Source of the DNA: Chitinophagales bacterium
Lineage (GTDB): Bacteria; Bacteroidota; Bacteroidia; Chitinophagales; BACL12
Direction of reading: 5' to 3'
NCBI GenBank assembly: GCA_044448625.1
Contig: JBIOHA010000002.1
Location: forward strand, 1 to 36,692
DNA length: 36,692 nt
The notes under the pieces are model-generated. The model was given only the letters and a program-made list of their open reading frames with translations, had not been told where the DNA came from and made no database searches. Position numbers and translations under genes: made by a program. This document shows positions 2,287-32,427 of the stretch, in pieces; position 1 is the first letter of the stretch; every line of letters begins with the position of its first letter.

Positions 2287-2325
2287 ATGTAATTTATATA
2301 CCCGCTGCAATTTACCAATTTGGAT

Positions 2326-11564: not shown

Positions 11565-12561
11565 TTTACATAAAACCAGATATTCACTTTTTTTTCATGT
11601 GGTGTTTATTTACATCATTGCTTCATTTATCTGGTGGTCGTACCTGCTGCACCGAAATAACTATGAAAATTATGATGAGATCATTAAAAGGGAGCAATTT
11701 GTATATACCCAAAACGGAGGCAAATTATCTGCATTTAAATCAACACCGGTATTTATTAAGGTGAACAACGAATTTAAACGTACCGAGCTGATGTTGTATG
11801 GGGAAGGAATTGTTTTCATTGGATTGATCACACTGGGTTTCTGGCGGATAAGACGAACATTCAGATCGGAAATTGACCTCACCAGGCAGCAGAATAACTT
11901 TTTGTTATCTATTACCCACGAATTAAAATCGCCTCTGGCATCTTTAAAGTTGTCGATGCAAACAATCAGAAAACATGAACTCGATGGTGAACAGGTAAAA
12001 AATATGGCTGATATGTCGCTTGATGATATTGAACGCCTTGAATTATTGGTTGAAAACATTTTGCTGGCGTCAAAGATCGAGAGTGCAAACTTCCGCCTCA
12101 ATAAAGAATTAATGGACCTTTCTTCCATAACACAAAATATTTTTGACCGCGAGAAAATTAAACATAAAGACCAGCGCCATTTTACCAGTAAAATTGAAGG
12201 CAACATTTATGTTTACGGCGACAGGTTCTCATTTTCATCGGTAATTTATAACCTTATCGAAAACGCGATTAAATATTCAGAGAGAGGTTCTGAGATCGGT
12301 GTTGAATTAACCGGCGATGAAAAAAATGCATATCTAAATATTTCCGATACGGGCATTGGAATTCCTGAGAACGAAAAAATGAAGATATTCGGAAGGTTTT
12401 ACAGGATCGGCACTGAAGAAACACGAAAAACAAAAGGAACAGGATTGGGATTATTTATCGTTAAACATGTGGTGTTGATGCATGCGGGGGAAGTGCTGGT
12501 TAAACACAATCAACCAAGGGGAAGTATTTTTGAAGTGAGGATTCCGGTTGGTGCATTGTAG
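11536..12561 (+). CDS. Two-component sensor histidine kinase (two N-terminal TM segments, short loop)
   Basis: It has an H-box (SITHELKSPLASLKL), N-box (NLIENAIKYS), G1 (DTGIGIPENE) and G2 (GTGLGLFIVKH). Start candidates are TTG 11533, ATG 11536 and ATG 11557. All of them overlap the hemL 3' end (stop 11562-11564). Confidence 0.85.
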   Translation: MKNIYPTMINLHKTRYSLFFHVVFIYIIASFIWWSYLLHRNNYENYDEIIKREQFVYTQNGGKLSAFKSTPVFIKVNNEFKRTELMLYGEGIVFIGLITLGFWRIRRTFRSEIDLTRQQNNFLLSITHELKSPLASLKLSMQTIRKHELDGEQVKNMADMSLDDIERLELLVENILLASKIESANFRLNKELMDLSSITQNIFDREKIKHKDQRHFTSKIEGNIYVYGDRFSFSSVIYNLIENAIKYSERGSEIGVELTGDEKNAYLNISDTGIGIPENEKMKIFGRFYRIGTEETRKTKGTGLGLFIVKHVVLMHAGEVLVKHNQPRGSIFEVRIPVGAL

Positions 12562-12563
12562 AT

Positions 12564-12782
12564 GTTAAGCACAGAGGAAAACAGAAGTTGAAGCACAGAG
12601 GGACACAAAGGGACACAGAAAATTGTTTATGGAAAGGATTAAACACAGAGGGGCGCAGAGGAACAGATAATTATATACGTAAAGAATTCAGCACAGAGGG
12701 GCACAAAGGAACACAGAAAATTATATACGTAAAGAATTAAGTACAGAGGGGCACAGAGGAACACAGAAATTGAACCACAAAA
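12564..12782. repeat. Phased CACARAG array (about 50-bp unit x4 plus a partial unit)
   Basis: CACARAG-like heptamers start at 12570, 12580 | 12594, 12604, 12614 | 12644, 12654, 12662 | 12692, 12702, 12712 | 12742, 12752, 12762 | 12776. These are triplets at 10-bp spacing repeated every 48-50 bp. Units 12669-12718 and 12719-12768 differ at 3 of 50 positions. Confidence 0.9.
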
Positions 12783-12926: not shown

Positions 12927-13622
12927 ATGAACAACCGAATATTAATTGTAGAAGATGAGGATCACATTCGTGAGAACCTCAAACTTAACCTCGAATTGGA
13001 AGGCTATGAAGTGATAGCGGTTTCAAACGGGGCAAAAGCGATCAAAGCGTTTCGGGAGCAACGGTTTGATCTGATCATACTCGACGTGATGCTTCCTGAA
13101 ATGGATGGCTTTGATGTTTGTGAGCAAATCAGGCTGGATGATCGTGAAACTGCTATCTTATTTCTTACTGCAAAAGATGCGAGTGTCGACAAGATCAAAG
13201 GATTAAAAACAGGTGGCGATGATTATATGACCAAACCATTTAATCTCGAAGAACTATTATTGAGAATACGCAATTTGTTGAAACGGTCCTCGAAAAATCC
13301 CGCGGAAGATAAATTCCATGAATACGAATTTGGAGGAAACACCATCAATTTCGTTACTTATGAAGCGAAAGGATTAAATGGAGATGTAAAGCTCACCAAC
13401 AAAGAATTAAAGTTGTTGAAATTGCTTATTGACAGAAAAAATGAAGTTGTTTCCCGCACCCTGATTTTGCAAACTGTTTGGGGTTATGACGTTTATCCGT
13501 CAACCAGGACAATAGATAATTTTATTCTTGCCTTTAGAAAATACTTTGAGAGGGACCCTAAAAACCCGCTTTATTTTCATGCAATAAGAGGGGTGGGGTA
13601 TAAGTTTGCAGATGTGAAATAA
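12927..13622 (+). CDS. OmpR/PhoB-family response regulator (receiver plus winged-helix DNA-binding domain)
   Basis: 231 aa with ILIVEDEDHI, the phospho-acceptor region DLIILDVMLPEMDG, MTKPFNLEEL, and a C-terminal winged-helix ending ...IRGVGYKF. Confidence 0.9.
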   Translation: MNNRILIVEDEDHIRENLKLNLELEGYEVIAVSNGAKAIKAFREQRFDLIILDVMLPEMDGFDVCEQIRLDDRETAILFLTAKDASVDKIKGLKTGGDDYMTKPFNLEELLLRIRNLLKRSSKNPAEDKFHEYEFGGNTINFVTYEAKGLNGDVKLTNKELKLLKLLIDRKNEVVSRTLILQTVWGYDVYPSTRTIDNFILAFRKYFERDPKNPLYFHAIRGVGYKFADVK

Positions 13623-17909: not shown

Positions 17910-18022
17910 AATGAGTAATGAGTAATGAGTAATGAGTTTGTGCCCGAGCAGGATCTAAATTCCTTATTCCTTATTCCTTATTCCTTACTTCTTGCTCACC
18001 ACTGACCACTCCCCACTCCCCA
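17910..18022. repeat. Bipartite heptamer array C: (ATGAGTA)x4, 22-nt spacer, nine pyrimidine-rich heptamers
   Basis: atgagta x4 spans 17911-17937. The spacer ttgtgcccgagcaggatctaaa lies at 17938-17959. The second sub-array is ttcctta x4 (17960-17987), cttcttg, ctcacca, ctgacca and ctcccca x2 (to 18022). The glmM stop codon follows 2 nt later at 18025-18027. Confidence 0.9.
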
Positions 18023-19489: not shown

Positions 19490-20224
19490 ATGCGCCATCA
19501 AAAGTCATGGTTTGAAACTTGGTTCAACAGGCATTATTATGATCTGCTTTATCAGCATCGCGACGAAGATGAGGCTGCGGGATTTCTCGATGGATTAATA
19601 AGTTACCTGCACCCAACAACCGGAGCAACAATGCTTGATGCGGCCTGTGGTAAAGGCAGACATGCGAGTTATCTTGCCCAGAAGGGCTTTGAGGTTACAG
19701 GAATAGACCTTTCTTCAAAAAATATTAAGGAAGCAGCCATAAATGAAAATGACCACTTATCATTTTTCCAGCATGATATGCGAAGAGTGTTCAGGATAAA
19801 TTATTTCGATTTCATTTTTAATTTTTACACCAGCTTTGGATATTTCGATAATAAAAAATACGATATCATGTGTATGCAGTCATTTGCCGCGGGCTTAAAA
19901 AAAGGTGGAAGATTGGTTATCGATTTTTTTAATGTGAGCTATGTTTTAAAACATTTAGTGGAAGATGAAAGCAAAGTAGTTAATGGGGTGCATTTCACCA
20001 TCACAAAAAAATATGAAGATTGTTTTATAAGCAAAAAGATAGATGTCATGGATGGTAATAAAAGAGAGATTTTTTGTGAGAAGGTGCGGGCGTTACAATT
20101 AAATGATTTCAACGATTATTTTACAAAATCCGGATTAAAGCTGATCACCACTTTTGGAGATTATCAATTAAATCCTTACGATGAATCTGTTTCTGAACGA
20201 TTAATCCTTATAGCCGAAAAATGA
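19490..20224 (+). CDS. Class I SAM-dependent methyltransferase
   Basis: 244 aa with motif I (MLDAACGKGRH) and an acidic post-I residue (VTGIDLS). Confidence 0.8.
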   Translation: MRHQKSWFETWFNRHYYDLLYQHRDEDEAAGFLDGLISYLHPTTGATMLDAACGKGRHASYLAQKGFEVTGIDLSSKNIKEAAINENDHLSFFQHDMRRVFRINYFDFIFNFYTSFGYFDNKKYDIMCMQSFAAGLKKGGRLVIDFFNVSYVLKHLVEDESKVVNGVHFTITKKYEDCFISKKIDVMDGNKREIFCEKVRALQLNDFNDYFTKSGLKLITTFGDYQLNPYDESVSERLILIAEK

Positions 20225-20835
20225 TCATTCCCGAAGGCATCCAGCATATTGATGAACAATTTTTTATTCTCATCAACCGGAAATGGGCAAATGGTTTTTT
20301 TGATCTGATCATGCCACCCGTTCGCGACCGTTTGTTCTGGATATTTCTTTATATTCTGATTGCCGGAATTATTTTCTGGAAATTCAGGCTCAGGGGACTA
20401 TGGATCATTTTATTGCTGGCAGCAACATTTGGAATAACGGACCAGCTCAGCAGCTCCGTCATTAAACCTGCAGTAGGCAGAATAAGGCCGTGCAATGATG
20501 AACAATTTAAAGATGAGGTTATTTTGAGGATCAGTGCATGTGGCGTAGGCAAAAGTTTTACATCAAGCCACGCAGCAAATACTTTCGCTTTTGCAGTATT
20601 GTTAAGTTTATTATTCCGTGCACGATGGAAATATATTACACCATTGGCAATTTTTTGGGCAGCACTTGTTTCATATGCTCAAATTTATGTGGGGGTTCAT
20701 TACCCGTTTGACATTATCGGAGGGGCATTGGTGGGAAGTATGGTTAGCATTATAATGTATTTGCTTGCAAAAAAATTTATCTTCCCTAAATTCATGCCTG
20801 AACTTTTACAACACAAAAAAGCAATAATAAAATGA
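20221..20835 (+). CDS. PAP2-family membrane phosphatase
   Basis: 204 aa, several TM segments, and the PAP2 tripartite motif KPAVGRIRP / TSSHA / GVHYPFD. ATGA overlap with the upstream gene. Confidence 0.8.
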   Translation: MIIPEGIQHIDEQFFILINRKWANGFFDLIMPPVRDRLFWIFLYILIAGIIFWKFRLRGLWIILLLAATFGITDQLSSSVIKPAVGRIRPCNDEQFKDEVILRISACGVGKSFTSSHAANTFAFAVLLSLLFRARWKYITPLAIFWAALVSYAQIYVGVHYPFDIIGGALVGSMVSIIMYLLAKKFIFPKFMPELLQHKKAIIK

Positions 20836-21572
20836 CCACTATTCAAATTGTTTTATTGATCGCTGCTTCGTTTATTGGAGTTTTTGCTGCATGGATGTTG
20901 CGCAATAAAACACAGAATAAGTTTTTGAGTGTGTTATTATCATTTAGCGGAGCTTATTTATTGGGTGCCGTCGTTTTACATTTATTGCCTGAAGTTTTTG
21001 AAAGCAATACAATTGATGATGGTCATGATTATACCGCTGCTATTTATATTTTAATCGGCTTTTTGATCCAGCTTTTAATTGTTCAGTTTACAAAAGGTAT
21101 TGAACACGGCCATTTACATTTGCACGATCATTTTTCAAAAGGATATGTGGCCGGTGTGGTATTCGGATTAAGTGTGCATGCCCTTATGGAAGGCATACCC
21201 CTGGCAGCACCTGAGATCTCCTCCGAACAAATCCAACCTTTGTACTGGGGGATAGTTGTTCACAAGATCCCGGAAACATTTGCACTGGCAACGGTATTAT
21301 TTTTTTCTGTGAAAAAACATTCGTACGCATTTATTTTTACATTGTTTTTTGCTTTGATGACACCGATAGGCAGCCTTGCCGGAAATTATTTTGCAAAAGA
21401 GGACGCCTTCAATTTTAACTGGCTTATCGCAATTGTTTGCGGATCGCTGATCCACATCTCAACAACAATTATTTTTGAAGCAAGCGGGAAGGCACATAAA
21501 ATGAGTATAATTAAACTCGCGGTTATTATCGGAGGCTTTGGCCTTTCGTTATTATCTGCAATTTTGGAGTAA
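20832..21572 (+). CDS. ZIP-family divalent metal transporter
   Basis: 246 aa, polytopic, with a His-rich loop (HGHLHLHDH) and a ZIP-type HKIPE motif. ATGA overlap with the PAP2 gene. Confidence 0.8.
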   Translation: MTTIQIVLLIAASFIGVFAAWMLRNKTQNKFLSVLLSFSGAYLLGAVVLHLLPEVFESNTIDDGHDYTAAIYILIGFLIQLLIVQFTKGIEHGHLHLHDHFSKGYVAGVVFGLSVHALMEGIPLAAPEISSEQIQPLYWGIVVHKIPETFALATVLFFSVKKHSYAFIFTLFFALMTPIGSLAGNYFAKEDAFNFNWLIAIVCGSLIHISTTIIFEASGKAHKMSIIKLAVIIGGFGLSLLSAILE

Positions 21573-21725
21573 CTTCTACAACTGTTCCGAAAAAATAAAT
21601 TCAGGAATGTAGATGAGGCAGATTTAGCTGATTTAAATATCTGTACCGACAGCCGCCATGGACAACGGAGCAATAATTACAAACCTTCCGAACTGTTTTG
21701 GAATAACATTCTTAAATTTATACCC

Positions 21726-24700
21726 ATGGTCCCCAAAATTTTAGTTTCGAATTACAGATCAATTGCTATCATTTTGGTTTTCACCTGCCTGGCGGGTTGC
21801 TCATTTTTCAACAAAAAAGAAACTATCACCCGTGCTTCAGTTATCATCGATAAAGACAGAGTGGTACCCACCGATAAGGATAATGGAAAATTATTTGAGA
21901 TCTTAACCGGAAAATCCACTGGATTAAATTTTATCAATACCCTTCCCGACAATTACGAAAATAATTATTGGAGATATACTTTCATTTACAATGGCGGAAG
22001 CGTAAACATCGGTGATTTTAATAATGATGGTTTGCCCGATGTTTTTTTTACGGGTGTAATGGTGCCACATCACCTTTATTTAAACAGAGGAAATTTGCAG
22101 TTTGAAGATATCACCTCAGCAGCAGGAATCACAAAAAAAGAATTTGAGTGGACATCGGGCTCAACGGTTGCCGATGTGAATGGTGATGGATGGCTCGATA
22201 TTTATATTTGTAATTCAAGATGGGCCGATCCTGAAAAACACGGAAATAAATTATTCATAAACAATGGCGATCTCACCTTTACGGAAAAAGCCAAAGAGTA
22301 CGGATTAACAGGAGACGTTACATGTTCAGCGGCGAATTTTTTTGATTATGACAACGATGGTGATCTCGATATGTATCTTGTTACGCATCCGCTGGATTTT
22401 ATCAATAAATTTAAAACCTATTATTTGCAGACAATCGAAAATAACAGAAACCTCAGCAATAAATTATATCGCAACAATGGTGATAACACATTTACCGATA
22501 TTCATCTTGAAGCCGGGATAAACAACCATGGCTTCGGCCTGGGTGCTACTGTTGCCGATTTCGATGAAAATGGATATCTCGATATTTTTGTTACAAATGA
22601 TTTTGGCATGTATGACTATCTCTATTATAATAATGGTGATGGCACATTTACCGATGCATCATTAACGGCATTAAAAAGGCATGGAGTAAGCTCAATGGGA
22701 GCAGATGCTGCCGATTTTAATAACGATGGGCTCATCGATCTCTACTATGTTGATATTGAGATGGAAGAAAATTATACCTATAAAACATTTCAGATCTCCA
22801 GCCAGGTGGAAATTTTGCGCACACTTATTAACGCAGGATATGGGTATCAGAACCATGGAAATTCTCTTAAGCTGAACAACGGCAACAAAACATTTTCTGA
22901 AATTGCCCGCACTGCAGGTGTGGGAGTTACCGATTGGGGATGGTCGAGTTTTTTCACCGATTTTAATAATGACGGACTCAAAGATATTTTTGTTTCAACA
23001 GGTTATTTGCAGGACTTCAACATTGATGAATCGGAAACTTATGTGGAATTAAGAAGGGCATGCCGGATTAGCGACAGCACGGTGTATTACAAGCTTATAA
23101 ATTCAATTCCAAAATATATTCTCAACACACCCAATTTTATTTACAGGAATAATGGCGACCTCACCTTTGAAGATATGCGAGATGCATGGGGTATTTATCA
23201 TCCATCGTCATCGTACGGTGCCGCTTCCGCTGACCTTGATCTTGATGGCGACATGGATATTATTTGCGCCAATGCAAATGAAACACCATATGTCTATAAA
23301 AACAATTCTGAAAAAATGGGTGAGCATAATAATTTCATCCGATTTCAGTTAAAGGGTTATGCAAAAAATACATATGGACTCGGAACAAAGATCAAAATTT
23401 ATTATGGCGACACCATGCAATATATTCAGCATACCAATACGAGGGGTTATATTTCAACAACAGAAAATATTATTCATTTTGGAACAGGGAAAAATAAAAT
23501 AGTAGAACGAGTAGAAGTTACATGGCCCGATGGGAAAAAGCAAATGCTGGAAAATATAGCATGTGATCAACTGGTTATTCTGGATCACGCTGAGGCGGGA
23601 GAAATTCATTTCCCCGAGATCAAACAATCAGAAACAACATTTAAAAGTGTAGCTTACAATTCCGGAATAAACTATAAGCATAATGAAAATGATTTCGAAG
23701 ATTTTACCAGGGAATTTCTCATCCCACATAAAATGAGTGTTTCAGGACCCTGCATTGCAACCGGCGATCTCGATGGTAATGGGTTAGATGATATATATAT
23801 TGGCGGCACATTCGAAAAAAAAGGCGCAGTCTATCTGCAAACAACAAGCGGAAAATTTACTACAGGCAAAATTGATCTTGCTGCCAATATCAAATATGAA
23901 GATGGTGCTGCACTTATTTTCGACGCGGATAATGATGGTGACAACGATATTTATGTTGGCAGCGGCGGTAACGAAAAAATTGCCGGCGACAGTTGTTACA
24001 GCGACAGGTTTTATTTGAATGAGGGCAATGAATTTATATTGAGAAATGATAAGATCCCGGCATCCTATATTCCTACATCCTGTGTTCTTGGATGCGATTA
24101 CGACAAAGACGGTGACATGGATCTGTTTGTTGGCGGTAGACAATATCCCGGAAAATATTTAATGCCTGTTTCTTCCCGCATCCTGAAAAATGAGCAGGGA
24201 AATTTTGTTGACGTTACTTCGCAAATTGCACCCGCACTGAAAAATATCGGAATGGTTTCAACTGCGCTATGGACCGATTTCGACAATGATAATAATATCG
24301 ATTTGATCGTCACTGGCGACTGGATGCCAATTGTTTTTTTGAAAAACGATAAAAATAATTTCACCAACATCACCTCCGAAACAAATTTAAAAAACATGGA
24401 AGGTTGGTGGCAAAGTATTAATGGTGCTGACCTTGATAATGATGGCGATATTGATTATGTGCTGGGAAATTTCGGTACAAACAGGAGATATAAAAATACA
24501 ATTTCAGAATCAACGGGTGAAGCGCTGCCGCTGGAAGCGTTTTTATTTAATAAGAATGAAACTGATTATAATGGTTTAATGATCAGTTATTACCAACATG
24601 ATATTTTGTATCCTGTTAATTTACGTGAACGATTGCTTGAACAATTCCCTGAGTTGAAAAAAACTGTTCCCGACTGGGATTCTTTTGGAAAAATGAGTAC

Positions 24701-25337
24701 CCAGGAAATGTTTGGTTTAAACAATCTCACATCTGCCCGCCACCTGTTATGTTATCAGTTTGAAAGTACCGTTTTAATAAATAATGGCAACCTGAATTTT
24801 ACAAAAAAAATATTTCCGGTTGATGCCCAGGTGAGCCCTGTGTTTGGAACAATTTGCCAGGATTTTAATGGGGATGGTTTCGTTGACATTTTATGCCACG
24901 GTAATTATTTTCAGACCGATATTTTAATTACCCGTCATGATGCCGGTACCGGTTTGTTGCTTCAGGGAAATGGGGATGGCAGCTTTAAAGCTCTGAGGAG
25001 TATTGAAAGTGGATTTTGGAGCGATGGCGATGCAAGGTCGCTCGCTCTCGTTAACTGCGGTGAAAATCAACCACCACTCATAATTGGTGGGGTGAATAAC
25101 GACGACGTAAAAGTATATGAATTTGCAATTCCTAAAATGATGAGTGTCGAACAAAATGATGCATATGCACTTATTACCCTAAATGATAATTCTGTCGTGA
25201 AAAAAGAATTTTATAAAGGTGAAGGGTATTATAGCCAGAATTCAAATACCGTTTTGATTAATGATAAGGTAATGATGGTTTATGCTGTAGATTATATGGG
25301 GAATAAAAAGCGCATTTACAACCGGTCGATAATGTAA
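21726..25337 (+). CDS. VCBS/FG-GAP repeat lipoprotein with central ASPIC/UnbV domain (CRTAC1-like)
   Basis: 1203 aa with a lipobox (LVFTCLAGCSFF) and many FG-GAP/VCBS Ca-binding repeats (FNNDGLPDVF, VNGDGWLDIY, DNDGDLDMY...). It has an ASPIC/UnbV-like segment (GLGTKIKIYYGDTMQYIQHTNTRGYIS...VEVTWPDGKK). Confidence 0.8.
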   Translation: MVPKILVSNYRSIAIILVFTCLAGCSFFNKKETITRASVIIDKDRVVPTDKDNGKLFEILTGKSTGLNFINTLPDNYENNYWRYTFIYNGGSVNIGDFNNDGLPDVFFTGVMVPHHLYLNRGNLQFEDITSAAGITKKEFEWTSGSTVADVNGDGWLDIYICNSRWADPEKHGNKLFINNGDLTFTEKAKEYGLTGDVTCSAANFFDYDNDGDLDMYLVTHPLDFINKFKTYYLQTIENNRNLSNKLYRNNGDNTFTDIHLEAGINNHGFGLGATVADFDENGYLDIFVTNDFGMYDYLYYNNGDGTFTDASLTALKRHGVSSMGADAADFNNDGLIDLYYVDIEMEENYTYKTFQISSQVEILRTLINAGYGYQNHGNSLKLNNGNKTFSEIARTAGVGVTDWGWSSFFTDFNNDGLKDIFVSTGYLQDFNIDESETYVELRRACRISDSTVYYKLINSIPKYILNTPNFIYRNNGDLTFEDMRDAWGIYHPSSSYGAASADLDLDGDMDIICANANETPYVYKNNSEKMGEHNNFIRFQLKGYAKNTYGLGTKIKIYYGDTMQYIQHTNTRGYISTTENIIHFGTGKNKIVERVEVTWPDGKKQMLENIACDQLVILDHAEAGEIHFPEIKQSETTFKSVAYNSGINYKHNENDFEDFTREFLIPHKMSVSGPCIATGDLDGNGLDDIYIGGTFEKKGAVYLQTTSGKFTTGKIDLAANIKYEDGAALIFDADNDGDNDIYVGSGGNEKIAGDSCYSDRFYLNEGNEFILRNDKIPASYIPTSCVLGCDYDKDGDMDLFVGGRQYPGKYLMPVSSRILKNEQGNFVDVTSQIAPALKNIGMVSTALWTDFDNDNNIDLIVTGDWMPIVFLKNDKNNFTNITSETNLKNMEGWWQSINGADLDNDGDIDYVLGNFGTNRRYKNTISESTGEALPLEAFLFNKNETDYNGLMISYYQHDILYPVNLRERLLEQFPELKKTVPDWDSFGKMSTQEMFGLNNLTSARHLLCYQFESTVLINNGNLNFTKKIFPVDAQVSPVFGTICQDFNGDGFVDILCHGNYFQTDILITRHDAGTGLLLQGNGDGSFKALRSIESGFWSDGDARSLALVNCGENQPPLIIGGVNNDDVKVYEFAIPKMMSVEQNDAYALITLNDNSVVKKEFYKGEGYYSQNSNTVLINDKVMMVYAVDYMGNKKRIYNRSIM

Positions 25338-25374: not shown

Positions 25375-28300
25375 TTATCTCACCAGGTACATCTTTCCAT
25401 ATCCCGATTTAAAATAAGTATCCGTATTGGTATCATATTTTTCGAGGGCCTTGCCATTGAGTTTTGTAACCACGCGGTATAAATATAAACCGTTTGCAAG
25501 CTGATCGCCATATTTATCTGTACCATCCCAACTGAATTCAGTGATATTATTTCCAATATGCAATTCACCCAATTCACTCCGCATGATCTCGCGAATGATC
25601 TTTCCACTTACCGTCATGATCTGGATCTTAAAATAATCAGGGATCTCGCTGCCCGTTAATGTAAATACAAATCGGGTTTGTGTGGTAAATGGATTCGGAT
25701 AATTCATCACATTGGAGATCATGGCTTTGTTGATCACTTCAAATGAGATGCGGTAATCAAGTTCTCCTGCATTGTTTCCACTTACATCTTCACCATGGAT
25801 CTGTAAAACATAAATTCCATCTGCTTCAAATGTTGGATACATTTCCACTCGTGCATTGTTGATCTCCGCAAGGTCGGAAGTATCGGCAGGATAAAATTTT
25901 GTTGTATTGCCGTCGTAATAAAAATCATGCAGGCTGTTATCAGGATATTCAATTGTTATTCTTAATAATGAGGTATCTCCAAGTGCCAGGTATCTATTTT
26001 CGTCTTTCATCGATATCAAAATAAATGGCTTCGCACTTACGATGTCGCCATCGAAAATATGAACGCCATCGAATGTTACATCAAGCAACGGATTCCGAAC
26101 ATCAGGCGCATTATAAAATGGAATATAGGCAAGGTTATTAAAATGATATTGTTCAGGCTGATCGTTGTTTGGATTAACTTCAACAATTAATGTATTTTTT
26201 CCCGGTGGCATCACTTCCGGCTTTGTGCTAAACTGCAATGTAGAGATCATTGTTTGATCAGACAACAAAGAGTCCTGTCTTGTAAATGGAATTGGATGCA
26301 GGATATTATTTTGATCACGCACATTAAATTGAATGAGCAAACTATCCATATCGTAATCACTCACATTGGTGGTTGCAAAGGAGAGGTCGACCAATTGCCC
26401 CTGGTCAACACTGTCGCCCGAAAATGTATAATGCACATTCGGATTCAATGCAGCTTCAGGAACAGGAGTATAGATAACACGCCAATAATTATATTGAGCC
26501 GGAGTTCGCAGCGAATCATCTTTCGTATTTAATCTTAATTTGATATAAGGATATAATAGAGGGTCAATAAAAGCAATAGTAGTATCACCGCTTGTTAACC
26601 CCGATGATAAAACAGTTTCAACACCAGAAATACTTACGCCAATAATTTCAACATAATTTGTATCCATCAACGCATTATCATGTGCAAAATAGCTCCACTG
26701 GGCCTTATCCCAATATGTAGCCGGGCCGATTAATGTTGACTCCACCGTGCCTTCGTTCCAGTTTCCAATTACAACTACCGACAATTCAATTGTAGTTCCG
26801 ATTGAATCGCCAATTATTTCCACTTTGGTAGCAGGGTCACCTTTTTTGGCTGAAAATATATATGACCTGTCGTAATCATAAGTGGTGAGTGAAAGAATAT
26901 CCGTTGCGCCATATGCTGTAAAAGCATCATATAAATTATGACCATATATTGCAGTGTCATCCATCCATGCATAAAAATCAGGATATCCGTTGCTGTAACA
27001 AATAATATAATTGCTGTCGGGAATGGTATTCATCATGAACTGATATAATATTTCTCTGTTCGCAGGTGTATTGGTCCAAAACTGTATTATTTTTTCATAT
27101 GCATCGCCGCTGCAATAATAATCTCCATAGGGACCTGTATTGGTTGTTCCTATTTCATGGGTTGTCCACGGTTCACCCGAACTGGCATCAGCAACAAATA
27201 CAACAAAGCCCGTGCTTACACATGATGAAACAGCAACCAATTCACCGTCTAAATAACTTGTTACATCAAACCAATAGGTGCCGGGATATACACCGGTTGA
27301 AACATTATAAGTATTTACATCGGGAACAAATTCAAATATCCTTGTGGGTTGCAGTGCAATATTTTTATACTCATCTTCGAGATATTGAAAATAATGCGAT
27401 TGATTCCATCCTGTAATTTCACCCGGCAGGTATAAAAACGAACTTGATCGCCATAAAACATCTGTGCCGTCGGAAGTATCGGGAGTAATGCGCCAGTAAT
27501 ACACCAAATTATTTACCCAGATAACCGGTGGATTCATCCACTTTACAACACCACCTGATTGAAGCACATGCGTGGATTCGTGAAAAGGGGAATTAAAATT
27601 CATGGTGGTATCTATCTCAATGATATATTCTTTTTCATCCGCGAATACATAAGATGTTGAAGCTGCCAGGTATTCAGGAATATGATTCATAATGCTGAAT
27701 TCAACCGGATATATCGGAATTGCGTCATCAGAAATGATATAGGTATTGGTGCTGAGAATATTATTTAACTCATCGAGCTCTGTAATTCCATTTAATTTAT
27801 CAATATGAATATCAAAATCATTCAACCCAATTCCATTGAGCACATCCGTTGCAAATGGAATTCTCAAAGTATCCCTGAAATAGGTTGCATGAAATACCTG
27901 CAGAAATGTTTCTTCAATTCCTGTTGGCTTGGTTCTTTTTACTTCAACGAAATAGGAAGAGTCGATCGCCCTGCCCAGGTTGGTGACAATAATATTTAAA
28001 TAAAATGTATCCACGCCCGCAGAAATAATATCTGGTTCGAAATACACATATTGCGGTTCGATCGCATAATCGGGCAAATCGTGCGTATTGAGTTTAAGTG
28101 ATGGATCGCCCTGCAATGTGGTATGCTCAAGCGTAAGCTGATCATAAATATTTAGTGTGGGCCACATTGTATCGGATGTGGCTTTGATAACATCACCCAG
28201 GCCTTTATGATATTGCAACGAAGCCAATTCCTTATAAAACCATGTAGCATAGGTATGCAAACTTGAAGCAAGAGAAAAATTTGATGCTGCAATAAAAGCA

Positions 28301-30384
28301 ATTGCACCTTTGTTCTCTGAAAAAATATAGCGTTCACCCAATGTTATGCTCTCACCATGAATAGCTGATGTATTACAACCGTTTCCGTAAACAGTGAAAT
28401 ATTTCCCTTCATTGCTGAATTCTTCGGGTTCGCCAATATTGTAATCAAAACTACCTGTTGATGAATGGCCGAAAAAAGTGATCAGTGAAACGCCGTTATT
28501 CACCAATGAATCGATATATTCTGATTCGCTGTAAAAAATCGGATCGGTACTTAATTTATTAAATGGCGTTACATTGCCTCCATATAAAGTGTCTTCTATC
28601 GTATATGCATATTGGGTTAAAAAGCTATTGAAAAGCGATTGTTCATAAGGCGTTAAGCCTCCGGCAAAATGCAAAACATTTTTCATCCACGCTTTATTCT
28701 CTATAGTTTGCATATGATCGGCCTGTGCCGCTTCATATTCAATTACCTTGTCAAGATATGACTTGATATCATTTCCTGTTCTCGCCGAAATTCTACCGAT
28801 CGGAATTTCTGGAACCACAGATCCGGGTCTTGCAGAAAGTAAATTATCTGCACCGGGGTGGCCAAAAGTGGGCACAAGGTCGGCGGCATATTCAGGAGTT
28901 GCATAAGCACGGGTAACATCATAAGAATAAGATTTCCCTATTAAAAAAACATAATCTGGCCTTGACGCGAAATTGTCGGCAGCATATAATATAAAATTCC
29001 TGATGGCCAACGGATGTTTTTTCAATCCATAATAAAACTGATCATAAAGCTGATCTATATCAATCACTTTTGTATTGTGTAATCCCCCCTCCAATGAGTT
29101 TCTATAATTTTTATATTCATCTACCCAGTTTATTCCTGTGCCGTCATCAAATAGATCTTTGTGTGAAATCAGCAAAAAATTTCCCTGGTTTACAATTTCA
29201 CTATAATCAATAAAACTAACCGGTGTCATGGATGTAATATTTAATATATCCGATGGGTCCTGGCTCGACATAAAAAATTTATGATCATCAGTGGAATAGG
29301 GAATATGAAATTTGGAAATATCTGTTTCTACAATTGCAACAATCCTTTTATATGAATTGAGGTCATATAATATTGGTGACGTTGCTTTTTCATCAAAGTC
29401 GGTGAATTCTAGATAGGTTGTTGGATCTGCAGTGATTGGCAGGTCTAATTGAATTTTAGAAGCGTTGTCAAAATCAAATGTATGCGGATAGGTGATATCA
29501 GCAAAGGAATAGCGCTGATAGTCGGTAGAAAGTGGACCTGAAATAAAAGTGAGGAGATTATTATCTACAAGGTTCGTGATATCAAAATTATATCGCAGCA
29601 CTTTATAATTTGAAAATGTGCTGTCGACCAGGTTCAGGCCATTGAAGTCAATTACCACGTGGTGGCTCGAAAGATTTACACCCATTGCAGTTGTTTTCAA
29701 TGTTGGTGTAAATGATGGCCCTGTATAAATATTCGGAGTGCCGATAGAAATATTAAAAGTAGACAGACTGAATTTATAGCTTGCATAACCTTCACCATCT
29801 TCATATTTTGAACTCAGTACATCGAGATGTGGTGGCCCTCCATTAAAATACCCCGAGCCATACGGCGATCCATACACAACGAGTGAATGGTAAATATTGT
29901 ATGGTTGTGCAGCAGGTGCTCCGGCAAGGTCATTGGTGACATTAAAAATTCTGTTATTCGTAATTAAATTATTCCATGTTAAAAAATAGGTCGCTGTATC
30001 GGTTATTATGCTGGTGTAAGTATGCAATTGCCATTGGGCAGAATCAAACAACGGCGTATCAGTGCTGCCATCATTTTGTTCTCCAAAAAATTCAATGAAA
30101 TCGGCAGCATTAAAAACACCATCAGCTTCACCGCTGATATAAATATATTGTTCGGTCCCTTTGTTGAAGATCTGAAAATTGCGAGGGTCAATTGTTGCAA
30201 GCGAAACACCTATTCCGCTCAATGCATTATCTAATGTGGTATAGTCAATTCTGTAAATACCATCCTGTGAAACATTGAACTTAAGGTATTCCTGATCGTA
30301 ATTTATCCATTCGTTACCATATGGCTGACCGAATGAAAAGGTAAAAGAAATTATGCAACACAGTACAGGTAAAATTCTTTTCAT
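25375..30384 (-). CDS. Giant peptidase-C25 (gingipain/PorU-like) protein with T9SS type-A C-terminal domain
   Basis: 1669 aa with signal peptide MKRILPVLCCIISFTFSFGQ. Candidate C25 catalytic His and Cys lie in TFFGHSSTGSFDY and VYGNGCNTSAIHG. The C-terminus has T9SS CTD-like motifs (NYPNPFTTQTRFVFTL ... NGLYLYRV). Confidence 0.75.
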   Translation of the reverse strand: MKRILPVLCCIISFTFSFGQPYGNEWINYDQEYLKFNVSQDGIYRIDYTTLDNALSGIGVSLATIDPRNFQIFNKGTEQYIYISGEADGVFNAADFIEFFGEQNDGSTDTPLFDSAQWQLHTYTSIITDTATYFLTWNNLITNNRIFNVTNDLAGAPAAQPYNIYHSLVVYGSPYGSGYFNGGPPHLDVLSSKYEDGEGYASYKFSLSTFNISIGTPNIYTGPSFTPTLKTTAMGVNLSSHHVVIDFNGLNLVDSTFSNYKVLRYNFDITNLVDNNLLTFISGPLSTDYQRYSFADITYPHTFDFDNASKIQLDLPITADPTTYLEFTDFDEKATSPILYDLNSYKRIVAIVETDISKFHIPYSTDDHKFFMSSQDPSDILNITSMTPVSFIDYSEIVNQGNFLLISHKDLFDDGTGINWVDEYKNYRNSLEGGLHNTKVIDIDQLYDQFYYGLKKHPLAIRNFILYAADNFASRPDYVFLIGKSYSYDVTRAYATPEYAADLVPTFGHPGADNLLSARPGSVVPEIPIGRISARTGNDIKSYLDKVIEYEAAQADHMQTIENKAWMKNVLHFAGGLTPYEQSLFNSFLTQYAYTIEDTLYGGNVTPFNKLSTDPIFYSESEYIDSLVNNGVSLITFFGHSSTGSFDYNIGEPEEFSNEGKYFTVYGNGCNTSAIHGESITLGERYIFSENKGAIAFIAASNFSLASSLHTYATWFYKELASLQYHKGLGDVIKATSDTMWPTLNIYDQLTLEHTTLQGDPSLKLNTHDLPDYAIEPQYVYFEPDIISAGVDTFYLNIIVTNLGRAIDSSYFVEVKRTKPTGIEETFLQVFHATYFRDTLRIPFATDVLNGIGLNDFDIHIDKLNGITELDELNNILSTNTYIISDDAIPIYPVEFSIMNHIPEYLAASTSYVFADEKEYIIEIDTTMNFNSPFHESTHVLQSGGVVKWMNPPVIWVNNLVYYWRITPDTSDGTDVLWRSSSFLYLPGEITGWNQSHYFQYLEDEYKNIALQPTRIFEFVPDVNTYNVSTGVYPGTYWFDVTSYLDGELVAVSSCVSTGFVVFVADASSGEPWTTHEIGTTNTGPYGDYYCSGDAYEKIIQFWTNTPANREILYQFMMNTIPDSNYIICYSNGYPDFYAWMDDTAIYGHNLYDAFTAYGATDILSLTTYDYDRSYIFSAKKGDPATKVEIIGDSIGTTIELSVVVIGNWNEGTVESTLIGPATYWDKAQWSYFAHDNALMDTNYVEIIGVSISGVETVLSSGLTSGDTTIAFIDPLLYPYIKLRLNTKDDSLRTPAQYNYWRVIYTPVPEAALNPNVHYTFSGDSVDQGQLVDLSFATTNVSDYDMDSLLIQFNVRDQNNILHPIPFTRQDSLLSDQTMISTLQFSTKPEVMPPGKNTLIVEVNPNNDQPEQYHFNNLAYIPFYNAPDVRNPLLDVTFDGVHIFDGDIVSAKPFILISMKDENRYLALGDTSLLRITIEYPDNSLHDFYYDGNTTKFYPADTSDLAEINNARVEMYPTFEADGIYVLQIHGEDVSGNNAGELDYRISFEVINKAMISNVMNYPNPFTTQTRFVFTLTGSEIPDYFKIQIMTVSGKIIREIMRSELGELHIGNNITEFSWDGTDKYGDQLANGLYLYRVVTKLNGKALEKYDTNTDTYFKSGYGKMYLVR

Positions 30385-30415
30385 GCAAATTATTTAATTT
30401 TTACCATCGGTTTGT

Positions 30416-31519
30416 TTATTCAGTTACAGGAACCGGTTTTTCGCTTTTATTAATATCGAACATCAGACTAAATACGTGTGAATACAGTACTTCCGATTGT
30501 TTGCCAATATTTGTATAAGCATAATCCAATTGAACAGGTCCGATCAGAATTCCCAATCCTAAGTTTGGCTGCATTGTCCAGGCTTCTTCATAGAGATCGT
30601 CGGGAATATATCGCTGCACATTGCCTACACCGCCCCTCAGGAAAATGAATTTTTTATAATCGGCTTCAAGTCCAATATGCGGATCTACACTTAATGGATC
30701 TGCACTGATAAGCACATTTCTTCTCCCATCTGTAGTAATATCTGTATTTATCTCAGTTAACAGCCCGAAATTTTCTCCCAGTTTAAACTGGTATGCTGCA
30801 CCCAGGATCAGTTTGGGTGTAGTTATTTCCAGTGAATTCTCAGGAACTGCATTTCCTGTAGCCAGCAGCACATTCTTTTCTTCTTCGGTAAAAGAAAAAC
30901 TCCATGCATTAAAGGTGGATGTGATGTCGCGGAAGGTGGCGCCGAATTTCCAATTCTTGATATCCAGTTGTGCACCGCCATCAAGCCCAAAACCCCAGGC
31001 TGTGGCAAAACTGCCTGCATTGCGATGCACGATTTTTACATTTCCGCCAATGCGCAGTTCTTTCCATTTAAGCTTTGTAGCATAGCTGCCCAAAAATGCA
31101 TAGTCGGCAACAGAGAACGAAGTGATATTGTCGTAATTGATGCTGCCATCCGGTTCGATAAGGAACAAAGTATTTGGAATGTCGTCAACAGCAAAACGGA
31201 TAAGTGAAATGCCCACAGCAGCATTTTTTTCCCGCAGGGGAATTGCAATGGAACCGTACTCATACTTTGCTATCCCTGCAAAATATTCCGAATGCATGAT
31301 CCCCAGCTGAATATCAGGTTTAATTAAGGTAAGAGAAGCAGGGTTCCAGTAACCGCCGGTAACATCACTCACCGAAGCACAAACTGAATTGCTCATGCCA
31401 AGGGCACGGGAAGAAACACCAATTGACAGGAACTCATTGCTGTATTTGGGTGCAGAACTTTGTCCAAAGCCTTGCAACACGCTCAGCACGATTGCGATTG
31501 TTGGTGTAAAATACTTCAT
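30416..31519 (-). CDS. PorV/PorQ-family outer-membrane beta-barrel protein (PorV-like)
   Basis: The ORF track starts at 31585 and overlaps the upstream gene. The internal ATG at 31517-31519 gives MKYFTPTIAIVLSVLQGFGQ, which looks like a signal peptide. Family motifs are SSRALGMSNS and GGYWNPASL, followed by alternating beta-strand-like sequence to the C-terminus. Confidence 0.6.
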   Translation of the reverse strand: MKYFTPTIAIVLSVLQGFGQSSAPKYSNEFLSIGVSSRALGMSNSVCASVSDVTGGYWNPASLTLIKPDIQLGIMHSEYFAGIAKYEYGSIAIPLREKNAAVGISLIRFAVDDIPNTLFLIEPDGSINYDNITSFSVADYAFLGSYATKLKWKELRIGGNVKIVHRNAGSFATAWGFGLDGGAQLDIKNWKFGATFRDITSTFNAWSFSFTEEEKNVLLATGNAVPENSLEITTPKLILGAAYQFKLGENFGLLTEINTDITTDGRRNVLISADPLSVDPHIGLEADYKKFIFLRGGVGNVQRYIPDDLYEEAWTMQPNLGLGILIGPVQLDYAYTNIGKQSEVLYSHVFSLMFDINKSEKPVPVTE

Positions 31520-31526
31520 GGCAGAT

Positions 31527-32201
31527 CTAGGAATCTGTCGGAAATTTAGGGAATTTTTGGGGAAGAATGATATTTTCAATGTCATGAATTGTTAATGTGA
31601 ATTGGCTTTTATCCTCATTTTGAAAGGGTGGATTGCCAAGCCGTTGGTTAATGCTGTTAATAAGCTCACCTAAACGGCTGTCATCTGTATAATCGTATAC
31701 AAATTTTATCGTTCGGAAACGGTTAAAAAATTGCGCCGGTTTTGAGGGATCTGAAGCGCCTGTATTGTCGCGGATGAACTGGTTTATAAATGAAAGGTCC
31801 ACTTTATCCAAAAGGAAATACATCAAATCGCAACTCCATTTTTCCTGGATAAGTAATTTGCGGTCGAGCATGAGTTCAAGAAAAACATGGCTCACGGCAT
31901 AGAGCCGTTTATCAAAACATTTAAAATCCCGCTTTTTAATTTCAAGGGATATTTCTGCTGTATTTTTTTGAAAGAACTGAGATCCGTGAAAATATTCATC
32001 CACGGCATAATGCCTTTTAACTCCGTTTATTAAAGAATTAATTTGAGGTAACCTGCTATCCGCTAATTTATTGGGGTGCAACTTCACTAATTCGCCACTG
32101 CGCCCGCTGTAATTGGATAAAATATCCGGCAATATCACCCCTGCTGCAAAGTAAGGATCTTCACAAGGTGTTTCATTATAAAAATGCGATAAAAAATTCA
32201 C
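31527..32201 (-). CDS. ACP phosphodiesterase (AcpH)-like protein
   Basis: The ORF track begins at a TTG (32267). The GTG at 32199-32201 gives (M)NFLSHFY..., the characteristic AcpH-family N-terminus (compare E. coli MNFLAHLHL), followed by a His-rich motif (VKRHYAVDEYFH). The stop lies 7 nt before the PorV-like start. Confidence 0.5.
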   Translation of the reverse strand: MNFLSHFYNETPCEDPYFAAGVILPDILSNYSGRSGELVKLHPNKLADSRLPQINSLINGVKRHYAVDEYFHGSQFFQKNTAEISLEIKKRDFKCFDKRLYAVSHVFLELMLDRKLLIQEKWSCDLMYFLLDKVDLSFINQFIRDNTGASDPSKPAQFFNRFRTIKFVYDYTDDSRLGELINSINQRLGNPPFQNEDKSQFTLTIHDIENIILPQKFPKFPTDS

Positions 32202-32295
32202 GCCGTTATTTTGATTTTGTTCACGAGGAAAGATAGGGTACTTAGAGCAGTGGGCAAAAAATATCAAGCGTGAAAAAATTCGAAAAATTGATAGG

Positions 32296-32395
32296 GGTAG
32301 AAAAAGATTCGAAGGGAGAAGATTCGAAGAGTTGAAGGTTAAGGACCTAAGAATATAAGGGTAGAAGTCCTTCGAATCTTCAATTCTTCAAATCC
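32296..32395. repeat. Inverted CTTCGAAT-type array E (purine-rich arm, loop, pyrimidine-rich arm)
   Basis: The left arm is gattcgaagggagaagattcgaagagttgaagg (32306-32338). The right arm is ccttcgaatcttcaattcttcaaatcc (32369-32395). 12-bp perfect stems form in two registers: 32318-32329 with 32370-32381, and 32304-32315 with 32369-32380. gggtagaa occurs as a direct repeat at 32296 and 32359. Confidence 0.85.
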
Positions 32396-32427
32396 CTGCC
32401 AGCCGCAGGCGGGTTCGACTCTTTATT

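Follow-up and report, generated by a model that had tools for sequence, protein, structure and literature searches.

A PorU2/PorV2 locus in a Chitinophagales bacterium: a putative paralogue of the type IX attachment pair PorU/PorV

The locus described here raises the question of whether a long C25 cysteine peptidase and the beta-barrel protein encoded directly upstream of it belong to the machinery that attaches type IX secretion system (T9SS) cargo and, if they do, whether they are PorU and PorV or something else. PorU/PorV is central to the surface coating of Bacteroidota, and to our knowledge Gram-negative bacteria have no other sortase-like system. The genes lie in a window of 36,692 nucleotides from a Chitinophagales bacterium (contig JBIOHA010000002.1), for which a preliminary description had proposed a non-canonical PorU/PorV-type T9SS module and had tentatively mentioned the names 'PorU2/PorV2'. 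Both names exist, as NCBIfam NF052324 (PorU_rel_Nterm, 'putative type IX secretion system sortase PorU2'; curated cutoff 450 bits) and NF052325 ('putative type IX sorting system protein PorV2'; cutoff 325 bits), and the proposal itself holds in that the two products pass these models and fail the PorU, PorV and PorQ equivalogs. Because NCBI already models the pair, the family is not a discovery of this work; to a catalogued putative family we add an invariant catalytic dyad, a C-terminal domain (CTD) conserved above the protease domain, a family-specific insert with a putatively lectin-like domain, and putative operon partners of porV2 that are lineage-specific and of a lipid/acyl type.

Layout of the locus and its recurrence

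Three co-directional minus-strand genes, evident from both the open reading frame listing and the sequence, run in the order AcpH-like gene, porV2, porU2:

32202..32427, minus strand: spacer 5' of the AcpH-like gene, 226 nt, probable promoter region
31527..32201, minus strand: AcpH-like gene, 224 aa, GTG start, first gene of the putative operon
30416..31519 (stop codon included), minus strand: porV2, 367-aa PorV/PorQ-family outer-membrane beta-barrel
25375..30384 (stop codon included), minus strand: porU2, 1669-aa PorU-paralogous C25 cysteine peptidase, ATG start

The AcpH-like gene and porV2 are separated by 7 nt (GGCAGAT on the plus strand) and porV2 and porU2 by 31 nt, as had been claimed, and the motifs listed in the preliminary description are likewise where it placed them (FFGHSS at residue 637 and GNGCNTS at residue 667 of the peptidase; SRALGMS at 37 and WNPASL at 58 of the barrel). 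We depart from it on the length of the barrel. The longest porV2 reading frame begins at 31585 and would give the 389 aa originally claimed, overlapping the AcpH-like gene; we prefer the 367-aa form because a signal peptide (MKYFTPTIAIVLSVLQGFG, followed by Q) begins at its ATG and because the called gene in a relative (L083) agrees, being 365 aa long and likewise starting 7 nt past the stop of the upstream gene. A promoter is suggested in the 226-nt spacer since in relatives the three-gene block begins after a divergent tyrS. The spacer holds a 12-nt perfect inverted repeat, AAGATTCGAAGG / CCTTCGAATCTT, at 32304-32315 / 32369-32380. A scan for sigma-70 promoters and terminators was set aside, its counts being at shuffle level and its consensus unsuited to Bacteroidota. 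Elsewhere, the same contig bears a T9SS plug gene (NF052315, 387 bits).

The barrel-first order had been singled out as the reverse of the canonical one, and it proves to be a family-wide trait. Of the genome loci whose upstream DNA is long enough, 63 of 74 have porV2 directly 5' of porU2 in the same orientation, and of the metagenome loci centred on PorV2, 60 of 71 have porU2 directly 3' of it; recurrence on this scale argues that the arrangement is not due to chance. Among the genome loci the median gap is 3 nt and a 4-nt overlap is often seen. The adjacency spans loci labelled Chitinophagales, Saprospiraceae, Flavobacteriales and Bacteroidales, among others. As roughly 15% of the porU2 genes stand without porV2 beside them, and roughly 15% of the porV2 genes without porU2, the partnership is not obligatory in cis. 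A DUF5916 protein was considered as an alternate partner of PorV2 and rejected, having been seen once (L090) and being absent from 11 solitary-PorV2 loci. With at least 587 confirmed relatives in the species-genome scan and more than 8000 PorV2 clusters in the protein collection, PorU2/PorV2, as known from sequence, is a widespread and strongly conserved paralogous pair. PorV2 is the more conserved of the two on shared contigs (for example, 73% for P0215 vs 55% for P0079; 72% for P0211 vs 64% for P0070).

Architecture of PorU2 and assignment of PorV2

PorU2 scores 770.2 bits against NF052324 over residues 5-875 (model positions 3-879 of 879) and just 151 bits against the canonical PorU equivalog NF033707, below its cutoff of 420. 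NF033707 covers only residues 31-768 (E 3e-44) and 1428-1641 (E 2e-19), corresponding to model positions 5-735 and 876-1078; both ends being covered, the homology spans the PorU architecture and extends beyond the protease domain. A single-sequence PDB search with PorU2 found nothing, a family profile being required; that profile matches PorU (6za2), Kgp (4rbm/4tkx) and RgpB (1cvr/4ief). The resemblance extends over the full length of PorU, from the N-terminal domains through the C25 domain to the C-terminal domain and the type-A CTD. Its features are as follows:

30325..30384, minus strand: predicted Sec signal peptide, residues 1-20, MKRILPVLCCIISFTFSFG followed by Q, cleavage before Gln21
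28090..29175, minus strand: Peptidase_C25 domain, residues 404-765 (Pfam PF01364, E 9e-56)
28465..28467, minus strand: codon of catalytic His640 (FFGHSS), aligned with His in PorU 'YAGHGG' and in Kgp 'YTAHGS'
28375..28377, minus strand: codon of catalytic Cys670 (GNGCNTS), aligned with Cys in PorU 'ITATC' and, in Kgp 'GNCC', with the second Cys
26104..28077, minus strand: insert, residues ~770-1427, beta-sandwich domains, CARDB-like ones among them, and a single alpha/beta domain
27394..27411, minus strand: GWNQSH signature motif of the insert, residues 992-997
26815..27087, minus strand: ILEI/PANDER-like alpha/beta domain, approximately residues 1100-1190, FAM3 / POMGnT1-stem-like
25378..25704, minus strand: type-A T9SS CTD, residues 1561-1669 (TIGR04183)

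The signal peptide is read from the signal-peptide features of the protein. The His and Cys motifs, previously put forward as candidates, correspond to the catalytic dyad: they align with those of P. gingivalis PorU, Kgp and RgpB, and His640 and Cys670 are each invariant in 83 of 83 PorU2 family members. The numbering of the catalytic residues rests on alignment to chain 6za2 and on the Kgp residues, which we take to be Cys477 and His444. The resemblance to the gingipains Kgp and RgpB, in fold of the catalytic domain and in the dyad, is confined to some 190-285 residues of the protease core, whereas PorU2 has PorU-specific domains in addition.

The type-A CTD attributed to the peptidase is likewise substantiated. 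TIGR04183 (cutoff 23 bits) gives 25.0 bits on the C-terminal 900 residues and 22.8, just under the cutoff, in a full-length scan, and in the family profile the domain aligns with the CTD of PorU 6za2. Together with the signal peptide, the score of at least 23 bits in the C-terminal segment scan gives PorU2 the features of a type-A CTD substrate. No other region of PorU2 is as conserved as the CTD, whose mean identity is 68% against 48% in the C25 domain; this is suggestive of permanent docking. The CTDs of ordinary T9SS cargo, as far as is known, are divergent.

The 400-500 aa of extra length noted at the outset is real and family-wide: the best 120 of 1132 homologues are 1632-1771 aa long, nearly all at 99-100% coverage. 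PorU2 exceeds the 1156-residue PorU chain 6za2 by about 500 aa because an insert of about 650 residues separates its catalytic and C-terminal domains. With 1669 aa (family approximately 1650-1720), the GWNQSH insert and porV2 directly upstream, the protein has the family architecture. GWNQSH, which served as the family-specific scan pattern for PorU2 loci, is strongly conserved (Gln995 in 83/83 members; Trp993 and His997 in 80/83). An AF2 model of residues 770-1669 has a mean pLDDT of 86 and resembles arrays of MG/Ig-like domains in Foldseek, and CARDB matches are present in homologues. As for the alpha/beta domain, Pfam ILEI PF15711 is above cutoff at the equivalent position in 4 of 5 homologues, and a profile of residues 975-1200 matches FAM3B, the POMGnT1 stem, FAM3C and FAM3A, not PorU. 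These E-values are weak (1e-3 to 2e-2), and in the window's own PorU2 the domain is below Pfam significance, so that its assignment is weak here. Within the ILEI/PANDER group, carbohydrate binding is a property that we attribute to the POMGnT1 stem only.

The porV2 product scores 493.5 bits against NF052325 (PorVQ2) over residues 10-356 (model positions 9-353 of 354). It is below cutoff for PorV (NF033710, 24 bits; cutoff 250) and PorQ (NF033711, 44.6 bits; cutoff 220), being by HMM score closer to the latter, and at 85.7 bits is just short of the cutoff of 90 for PorV_fam (NF033709). The only PDB match of the PorV2 family profile is F. johnsoniae PorV (6h3i_F, E 2.9e-4), which supports placement in the PorV/PorQ superfamily and, with the PorV2 model, upholds the earlier reading of a PorV/PorQ-type barrel.

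The AcpH-like gene upstream of porV2

The AcpH label given to the first gene survives as remote homology and lapses as a family assignment. AcpH of E. coli is an acyl carrier protein (ACP) phosphodiesterase, an enzyme that hydrolyses 4'-phosphopantetheine off holo-ACP. The 224-aa protein has no NCBIfam match and is below cutoff both for Pfam ACP_PD (PF04336, 14.5 bits, E 0.038; cutoff 27) and for Zn_dep_PLPC (15.6 bits). At the profile level a broad family (A4) aligns full-length with E. coli AcpH at an hhalign probability of 89% (E 2e-6, 181 columns), and a narrow one (A2) at just 2%; 23 of 39 broad-family members match ACP_PD at E <= 0.01 (best 4e-10). Identity as a Zn-dependent phospholipase C was rejected, since that match is as weak as the ACP_PD one and the broad family favors ACP_PD (23 vs 3 members). 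The protein begins (M)NFLSHF, as do all 52 homologues, and shares with E. coli AcpH the N-terminal MNFL(A/S)H, colinear His/Asp motifs and a comparable length (193 vs 224 aa), while its gene is neighboured by porV2 rather than by fatty-acid genes. Searching PDB sequences with a profile of the family returned only noise. The AF2 model is all-alpha (pLDDT 94); Foldseek found no PDB neighbour at E <= 0.001, there being no solved AcpH structure to compare, and no fold assignment is therefore possible. We regard the protein as a remote AcpH-superfamily homologue, visible at profile level only, and as cytoplasmic because it has no signal peptide.

Conservation of the adjacency is similarly mixed. 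The AcpH-like gene recurs directly 5' of porV2, mainly in Chitinophagales-labelled loci, but in a minority overall (9/61 genome and 6/64 metagenome loci, or 9–15%). It tracks porV2 rather than porU2, which is sometimes missing: in a protein-first sample, 4 of 6 informative members lie directly upstream of porV2, one of them without porU2. Probably it is a lineage-restricted, putatively co-transcribed cytoplasmic hydrolase. It could be imagined to perform a phosphopantetheine, acyl or phosphodiester step that readies a lipid or glycan acceptor for PorV2/PorU2, and lipid A O-deacylation in P. gingivalis does require PorV (LptO) (PMC5445135). The tight spacing from porV2 (7 nt here, 4-nt overlaps in some relatives) and the 4 of 6 members adjoining it are consistent with such a role, as is the fact that this position is taken in other lineages by MBOAT and DUF1574-like genes, which are co-directional, or by a CDP-alcohol phosphatidyltransferase, which is divergent. 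We nevertheless hold this to be improbable, given that (i) the gene is found in so few loci; (ii) its product is cytoplasmic; (iii) two family members are unlinked to porV2; (iv) homology to AcpH is remote and allows no substrate inference and (v) conservation of neighbours among related lineages may amount to retained synteny.

Possible roles of the pair

The PorU-PorV pairs that we compared (P. gingivalis PG0026/PG0027, F. johnsoniae Fjoh_1556/1555 and C. hutchinsonii CHU_3237/3238) have in common with the locus the C25 His/Cys dyad, PorU-type N- and C-terminal domains, a type-A CTD and an adjoining PorV-family barrel. The differences are gene order, porU coming before porV in P. gingivalis and C. 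hutchinsonii, the greater length of PorU2, and the failure of both proteins at the equivalog cutoffs. In the canonical model PorU is docked on PorV, and PorZ on PorQ, via a retained CTD (PMC10202324, PMC5445135). Functionally, canonical PorU is a signal peptidase for CTDs and a sortase joining cargo to A-LPS, and PorZ is an A-LPS-delivering beta-propeller protein. PorZ-PorQ is alike in concept, in that a CTD protein stays docked for good on a barrel of the PorV family, with docking here taken by analogy; PorU2 is unlike PorZ in that it has no NCBIfam PorZ match and that modelled residues 770-1669 consist of beta-sandwich and ILEI-like domains. A PorZ-like domain within PorU2 was rejected, as NCBIfam, the AF2 model of these residues and Foldseek gave no sign of a beta-propeller; a functional analogy alone survives, and that the insert may substitute for PorZ is only a hypothesis.

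We favor, at somewhat better than even, the reading that the locus is a PorU2/PorV2 member, paralogous to the T9SS attachment pair PorU/PorV, with docking and cargo sorting assigned by analogy. PorU2 would leave the cell by Sec and then by the T9SS, as in PorU-PorV and PorZ-PorQ; its unusually conserved CTD would be kept on, docking it onto the PorV2 barrel at the cell surface; the C25 domain would there cut the CTD from a subset of T9SS cargo, and the cleaved cargo would be released or passed to a surface acceptor. The putatively lectin-like insert may bind acceptor or cargo, as PorZ does in the canonical complex. Sortase/transpeptidase activity, surface location, CTD retention and contact with PorV2 are thus features that we infer from the canonical systems. 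A literature search under PorU2/PorV2 and related names returned false or unrelated matches only, and no paper testing function. What counts against a sorting role for PorU2 is that PorU is reported to have no role in the F. johnsoniae T9SS, at least in the account of Kharade & McBride 2015 cited in PMC8564354.

A C25 fold common to PorU2 and the gingipains would also fit a large gingipain-like T9SS cargo protease, serving nutrition or virulence outside the sorting machinery, with PorV2 as its dedicated anchor or shuttle barrel. Pairs of cargo and cognate barrel are a known T9SS theme (PMC10202324, PMC9143113). PorP/SprF-like barrels serve type-B CTD cargo in comparable fashion, the long Ig/MG-like chain with its lectin-like domain recalls adhesin or protease stalks, and the tandem porU2 copies of some genomes (L033, L075) are likelier for cargo than for machinery. 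We consider this unlikely all the same, since PorU2 shares PorU-specific N- and C-terminal domains beyond the protease core, its length and architecture hardly vary among loci that bear the labels of several different orders, and its CTD belongs to type A (TIGR04183) rather than type B and is its best-conserved part, unlike that of ordinary cargo as far as known. Distinctly improbable, in our estimate, is that the pair is the organism's sole PorU/PorV, orthologous and divergent, and hence a replacement rather than a 'second' module. The window covers one contig of 36.7 kb in full and leaves the remainder of the genome unseen, and PorU, PorQ and PorZ homologues are reported absent from Sphingobacteriia (PMC7323717), while a Sphingobacterium-labelled MAG (L076) has PorV2-PorU2. 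However, the PorU (151 vs 420), PorV (24 vs 250) and PorQ (44.6 vs 220) cutoffs are all failed, and the same survey reports PorU, PorV, PorQ and PorZ from Chitinophagia, PorU and PorU2 not being separated there. Moreover, PorU2 is present in Bacteroidales- and Flavobacteriales-labelled loci, orders whose members P. gingivalis and F. johnsoniae have canonical PorU, a distribution that would fit old paralogy better than divergence within one lineage. No canonical PorU was found within the 80 PorU2 loci examined, a result that bears on those loci and not on the rest of their genomes.

A bolder reading, to which we give little credence, makes PorV2/PorU2 a self-contained alternative attachment complex, in which PorU2 would combine the PorU sortase with PorZ-like acceptor binding and PorV2 the parts of PorV and PorQ. 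The ILEI/PANDER lectin-like insert would supply the acceptor binding. Preparing the acceptor, an envelope lipid or glycan, would fall to the variable genes recurring beside porV2, whether the AcpH-like gene, MBOAT plus DUF1574-like genes, or the CDP-alcohol phosphatidyltransferase. Were this true, Bacteroidota would have a second, chemically distinct covalent anchoring of T9SS cargo, and CTD processing where PorU is reported dispensable or undetected might be explained. Should the pair prove to be an independent attachment route, models of T9SS cargo sorting outside P. gingivalis would change. Set beside the NF052324 and NF052325 families as a whole, the locus agrees in near full-length model coverage, gene pairing and protein lengths, with no family-level difference, and adds the AcpH-like first gene, a minority feature of family loci.

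Identity of the peptidase and the adjoining barrel

Three genes make up the block, the longest ORFs being:
25375..30384, minus strand: porU2, the C25 peptidase gene, 1669 aa
30416..31585, minus strand: porV2, the barrel gene, 389 aa
31527..32267, minus strand: AcpH-like gene, 246 aa

Direct reading of the DNA placed the porV2 start at ATG 31519, giving a 367-aa protein with the signal peptide MKYFTPTIAIVLSVLQGFG followed by Q, and the AcpH-like start at GTG 32201, giving a 224-aa product that begins (M)NFLSHF, as do 52/52 homologues found. These are the biologically sensible starts, and with them the genes are co-directional and nearly contiguous (spacers of 7 nt and 31 nt), as the preliminary description had it. 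The motifs FFGHSS (His640), GNGCNTS (Cys670), SRALGMS and WNPASL also lie where they had been reported.

The locus adds a further member to a family already in NCBI's catalogue. The 1669-aa protein scored 770 bits against NF052324 ('putative type IX secretion system sortase PorU2', cutoff 450) and the barrel 493.5 bits against NF052325 ('putative type IX sorting system protein PorV2', cutoff 325), whereas the canonical PorU equivalog NF033707 gave 151 bits, under its cutoff of 420, and the barrel remained under the cutoffs for PorQ (44.6 bits against 220), PorV (24 against 250) and the general PorV/PorQ family (85.7 against 90). The names PorU2 and PorV2, raised in the preliminary description, thus exist in NCBIfam and apply here, and the proposal of a non-canonical PorU/PorV-type module was read correctly. 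A profile of 24 PorV2 sequences had a single match among PDB sequences, F. johnsoniae PorV (6h3i_F, E 2.9e-4). A full-text search for the two names returned artefacts and no paper using either, and the literature searched yielded no experimental work on the family; the family exists as a curated database entry marked 'putative'. The observation holds up and would be no surprise to a specialist in type IX secretion (T9SS).

Catalytic dyad and architecture of PorU2

Pfam places Peptidase_C25 at residues 404-765. A profile of 24 full-length PorU2 family members matched P. gingivalis PorU (6za2, E 1e-12), Kgp (4rbm/4tkx) and RgpB (1cvr/4ief), and in these alignments the His of FFGH falls on that of PorU 'YAGHGG' and Kgp 'TAHGS', while Cys670 matches the single Cys in PorU 'ITATC' and, in Kgp 'GNCC', the second of the two, which is Kgp Cys477. 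The candidate His/Cys motifs, therefore, do align with the PorU/gingipain dyad, and both residues are invariant in the window protein and 82 homologues from 80 genomes.

The greater length relative to canonical PorU is a fixed family trait, since the 120 best homologues are all 1632-1771 aa long (coverage 99-100% in nearly all). The canonical PorU model covers two separate stretches: its positions 5-735 match residues 31-768, and its positions 876-1078 match residues 1428-1641 in a scan limited to the C-terminal 900 residues. Because the model aligns on both sides, the approximately 500 extra residues form an internal insert, at about residues 770-1427, that separates the catalytic from the C-terminal domain, rather than a terminal extension. 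The same C-terminal scan bore out the type-A T9SS C-terminal domain (CTD; TIGR04183, 25.0 bits against a cutoff of 23). By region, mean identity to the window protein is highest in the CTD (68%), followed by the C25 domain (48%) and the insert (37-46%).

An AlphaFold2 model of residues 770-1669 (mean pLDDT 86) is a chain of beta-sandwich domains with one alpha/beta domain. Its top Foldseek matches were multi-MG-domain proteins (complement C3/C5, alpha-2-macroglobulins); PorU 6za2 was also matched, and no beta-propeller such as PorZ was among the matches. In PorU2 homologues Pfam finds a CARDB domain directly after the C25 domain and, in 4/5 homologues tested, an ILEI (FAM3/PANDER) domain above the gathering score near residues 1100-1210. 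A profile built on residues 975-1200 of 37 members matched FAM3B, the POMGnT1 stem domain, FAM3C and FAM3A (E 1e-3 to 2e-2) and left PorU unmatched. Our confidence in an ILEI-like domain in the window's PorU2 is moderate, as its own sequence fell below significance when scanned by itself.

Gene order and the AcpH-like neighbour

With each GTDB species represented by a single genome, a scan gave at least 587 confirmed PorU2 relatives, the 80 best loci of which were examined. Their records are labelled Chitinophagales, Saprospiraceae, Flavobacteriales (including a Vicingaceae chromosome) and Bacteroidales (Rikenellaceae, Lentimicrobiaceae, Marinifilum), with one MAG labelled Sphingobacterium among them; three cultured species are represented, Taibaiella koreensis, Thermoflavifilum thermophilum and Terrimonas ferruginea. 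Among the 74 loci whose upstream DNA extended for 1.2 kb or more, porV2 lay directly upstream of porU2 on the same strand in 63, with a median gap of 3 nt and frequent 4-nt overlaps. An independent PorV2-centred scan of metagenome contigs found porU2 directly downstream of porV2 in 60/71 informative loci. In P. gingivalis and C. hutchinsonii the order is porU, then porV; the reversed order noticed in the window is, therefore, the rule for the family. The 11 loci in which porU2 has no adjoining porV2 include five labelled Saprospiraceae. No further neighbour gene was conserved family-wide among the PorU2 loci compared.

Some loci depart from the common arrangement. Two (L033 3-8938 and L075 55-10617) carry two tandem porU2 paralogues each with no porV2 alongside, and a Saprospiraceae MAG (L020 45-7583) has two tandem porV2 genes upstream of porU2. 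Another (JAFMKE010000017.1) has the AcpH-like/porV2/porU2 block typical of Chitinophagales-labelled loci in a MAG labelled Verrucomicrobia, a label that is probably a binning error. In a Chitinophagaceae MAG (L083) a ZIP/PAP2/methyltransferase block adjoins porU2 directly; the window has the same block, and in the corresponding region (19490-25337) a gene for a 1203-aa FG-GAP/ASPIC protein is inserted between it and porU2. On the upstream side the window has a lipase-like lipoprotein gene and clpB where L083 has tyrS.

The tight coupling to an AcpH-like gene is real but lineage-restricted, and it follows the barrel gene. The AcpH-like gene precedes porV2 in 9/61 PorU2-centred loci (seven carry a Chitinophagales or Chitinophaga label) and in 6/64 PorV2-centred loci. 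Since porV2 follows the AcpH-like gene even where porU2 is absent (metagenome loci L105, 5320-7072, and L147, 863-2656) or replaced by a DUF5916 gene (L090, 7001-11191), the linkage is to the barrel gene. A protein-first sample of the AcpH-like family (six informative members and two contigs too short to judge) gave AcpH-like/porV2/porU2 in three (P0052, P0009, P0316), AcpH-like/porV2/DUF5916 in one (P0388) and AcpH-like genes unlinked to porV2 in two (P0340, P0296). This linkage is a small new observation.

As to what the AcpH-like protein is, the comparisons point to remote homology with E. coli AcpH and speak against orthology. The 224-aa protein lacks a signal peptide, matched no NCBIfam model, and gave equally weak Pfam scores, both below cutoff, of 14.5 bits for ACP_PD and 15.6 bits for Zn-dependent phospholipase C; a profile of its close homologues aligned just 14 columns with E. 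coli AcpH (2% probability). Its family of ~220-aa proteins has 918 representatives at E <= 1e-3 (exhaustive HMMER search), and a profile of 39 diverse members aligned with E. coli AcpH over the full length (89% probability, E 2e-6); 23/39 of these matched ACP_PD at E <= 0.01 and 3/39 phospholipase C. The invariant His and Asp/Glu residues (H6, D26, H64, D68, H72, H105, E109 and D113) suggest a metal-dependent hydrolase. The AlphaFold2 model is all-alpha (pLDDT 94), and no structural neighbour was found for it in the PDB.

Different genes take this place in other lineages. In six other genomes co-directional genes for an MBOAT O-acyltransferase and a 312-aa DUF1574-like protein precede porV2-porU2 with tight spacing or overlaps, in what look like four-gene operons (L039, L044, L047, L058, L060 and L079; about 6.2-10 kb, L047: 2-3868). 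A divergent CDP-alcohol phosphatidyltransferase gene takes the same position in 21 genome loci and several solitary-porV2 metagenome loci, and a divergent tyrS does so in 16 loci. Lipid A O-deacylation in P. gingivalis requires PorV/LptO (PMC5445135). We regard the repeated appearance of lipid- or acyl-type genes beside porV2 as suggestive, and retained synteny could also explain it.

Proposed role and T9SS context

We favor, with some reservation, a model in which PorU2 is a T9SS-secreted, PorV2-docked enzyme that processes cargo CTDs. By analogy with the PorU-PorV and PorZ-PorQ pairs (PMC10202324), T9SS would secrete PorU2, which would retain its exceptionally conserved CTD and dock on PorV2 through it; at the surface it would process the CTDs of some T9SS cargo, and its lectin-like insert may recognize the acceptor or cargo. 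What is observed is a PorU-like multidomain C25 enzyme and a PorV/PorQ-family barrel, both putatively exported, in tight and widely conserved gene coupling. The main rival, in which PorU2 is itself merely cargo and PorV2 its private anchor barrel, we consider unlikely. Less likely still, the source organism, for which the sequence examined was the 36,692-bp window (the whole contig), would have this pair in place of PorU/PorV and not in addition to it. Indirect evidence points to paralogy: both proteins fall short of the curated equivalog cutoffs, and PorU2 occurs in Bacteroidales- and Flavobacteriales-labelled loci, orders whose characterised members have canonical PorU. The family is uncharacterised, and concrete hypotheses about it follow from the features described above.

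One further T9SS gene lies in the window:
949-2448, minus strand: T9SS plug protein gene (NF052315, 387 bits; Pfam T9SS_plug_1st)

With this gene on the contig, the organism probably has a SprA-type T9SS translocon. An array of AAGAAGT extends into the 5' end of its longest ORF, and the true start is probably downstream, at MRIRPAF. This array (2338-2457, 11 copies facing an inverted 30-nt copy, ~90% complementary) lies at one of three intergenic sites with heptamer tandem arrays, the others being 3278-3408 (TGATGAG x6 and TACTTCA x10) and 17910-17987 (AATGAGT x4 and ATTCCTT x4). At 12591-12769, in the spacer that separates a histidine kinase gene (11533-12561) from a response-regulator gene (12927-13622), there are 3.6 copies of a 50-nt repeat unit (83% matches). 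Finally, the AcpH-like gene is preceded by a 226-nt spacer in which, at 32304-32381, two direct copies of AAGATTCGAAG occur with a perfect 12-nt inverted partner at a distance of 40-53 nt; these repeats could serve a regulatory function or terminate transcription of the upstream lipase-like gene.
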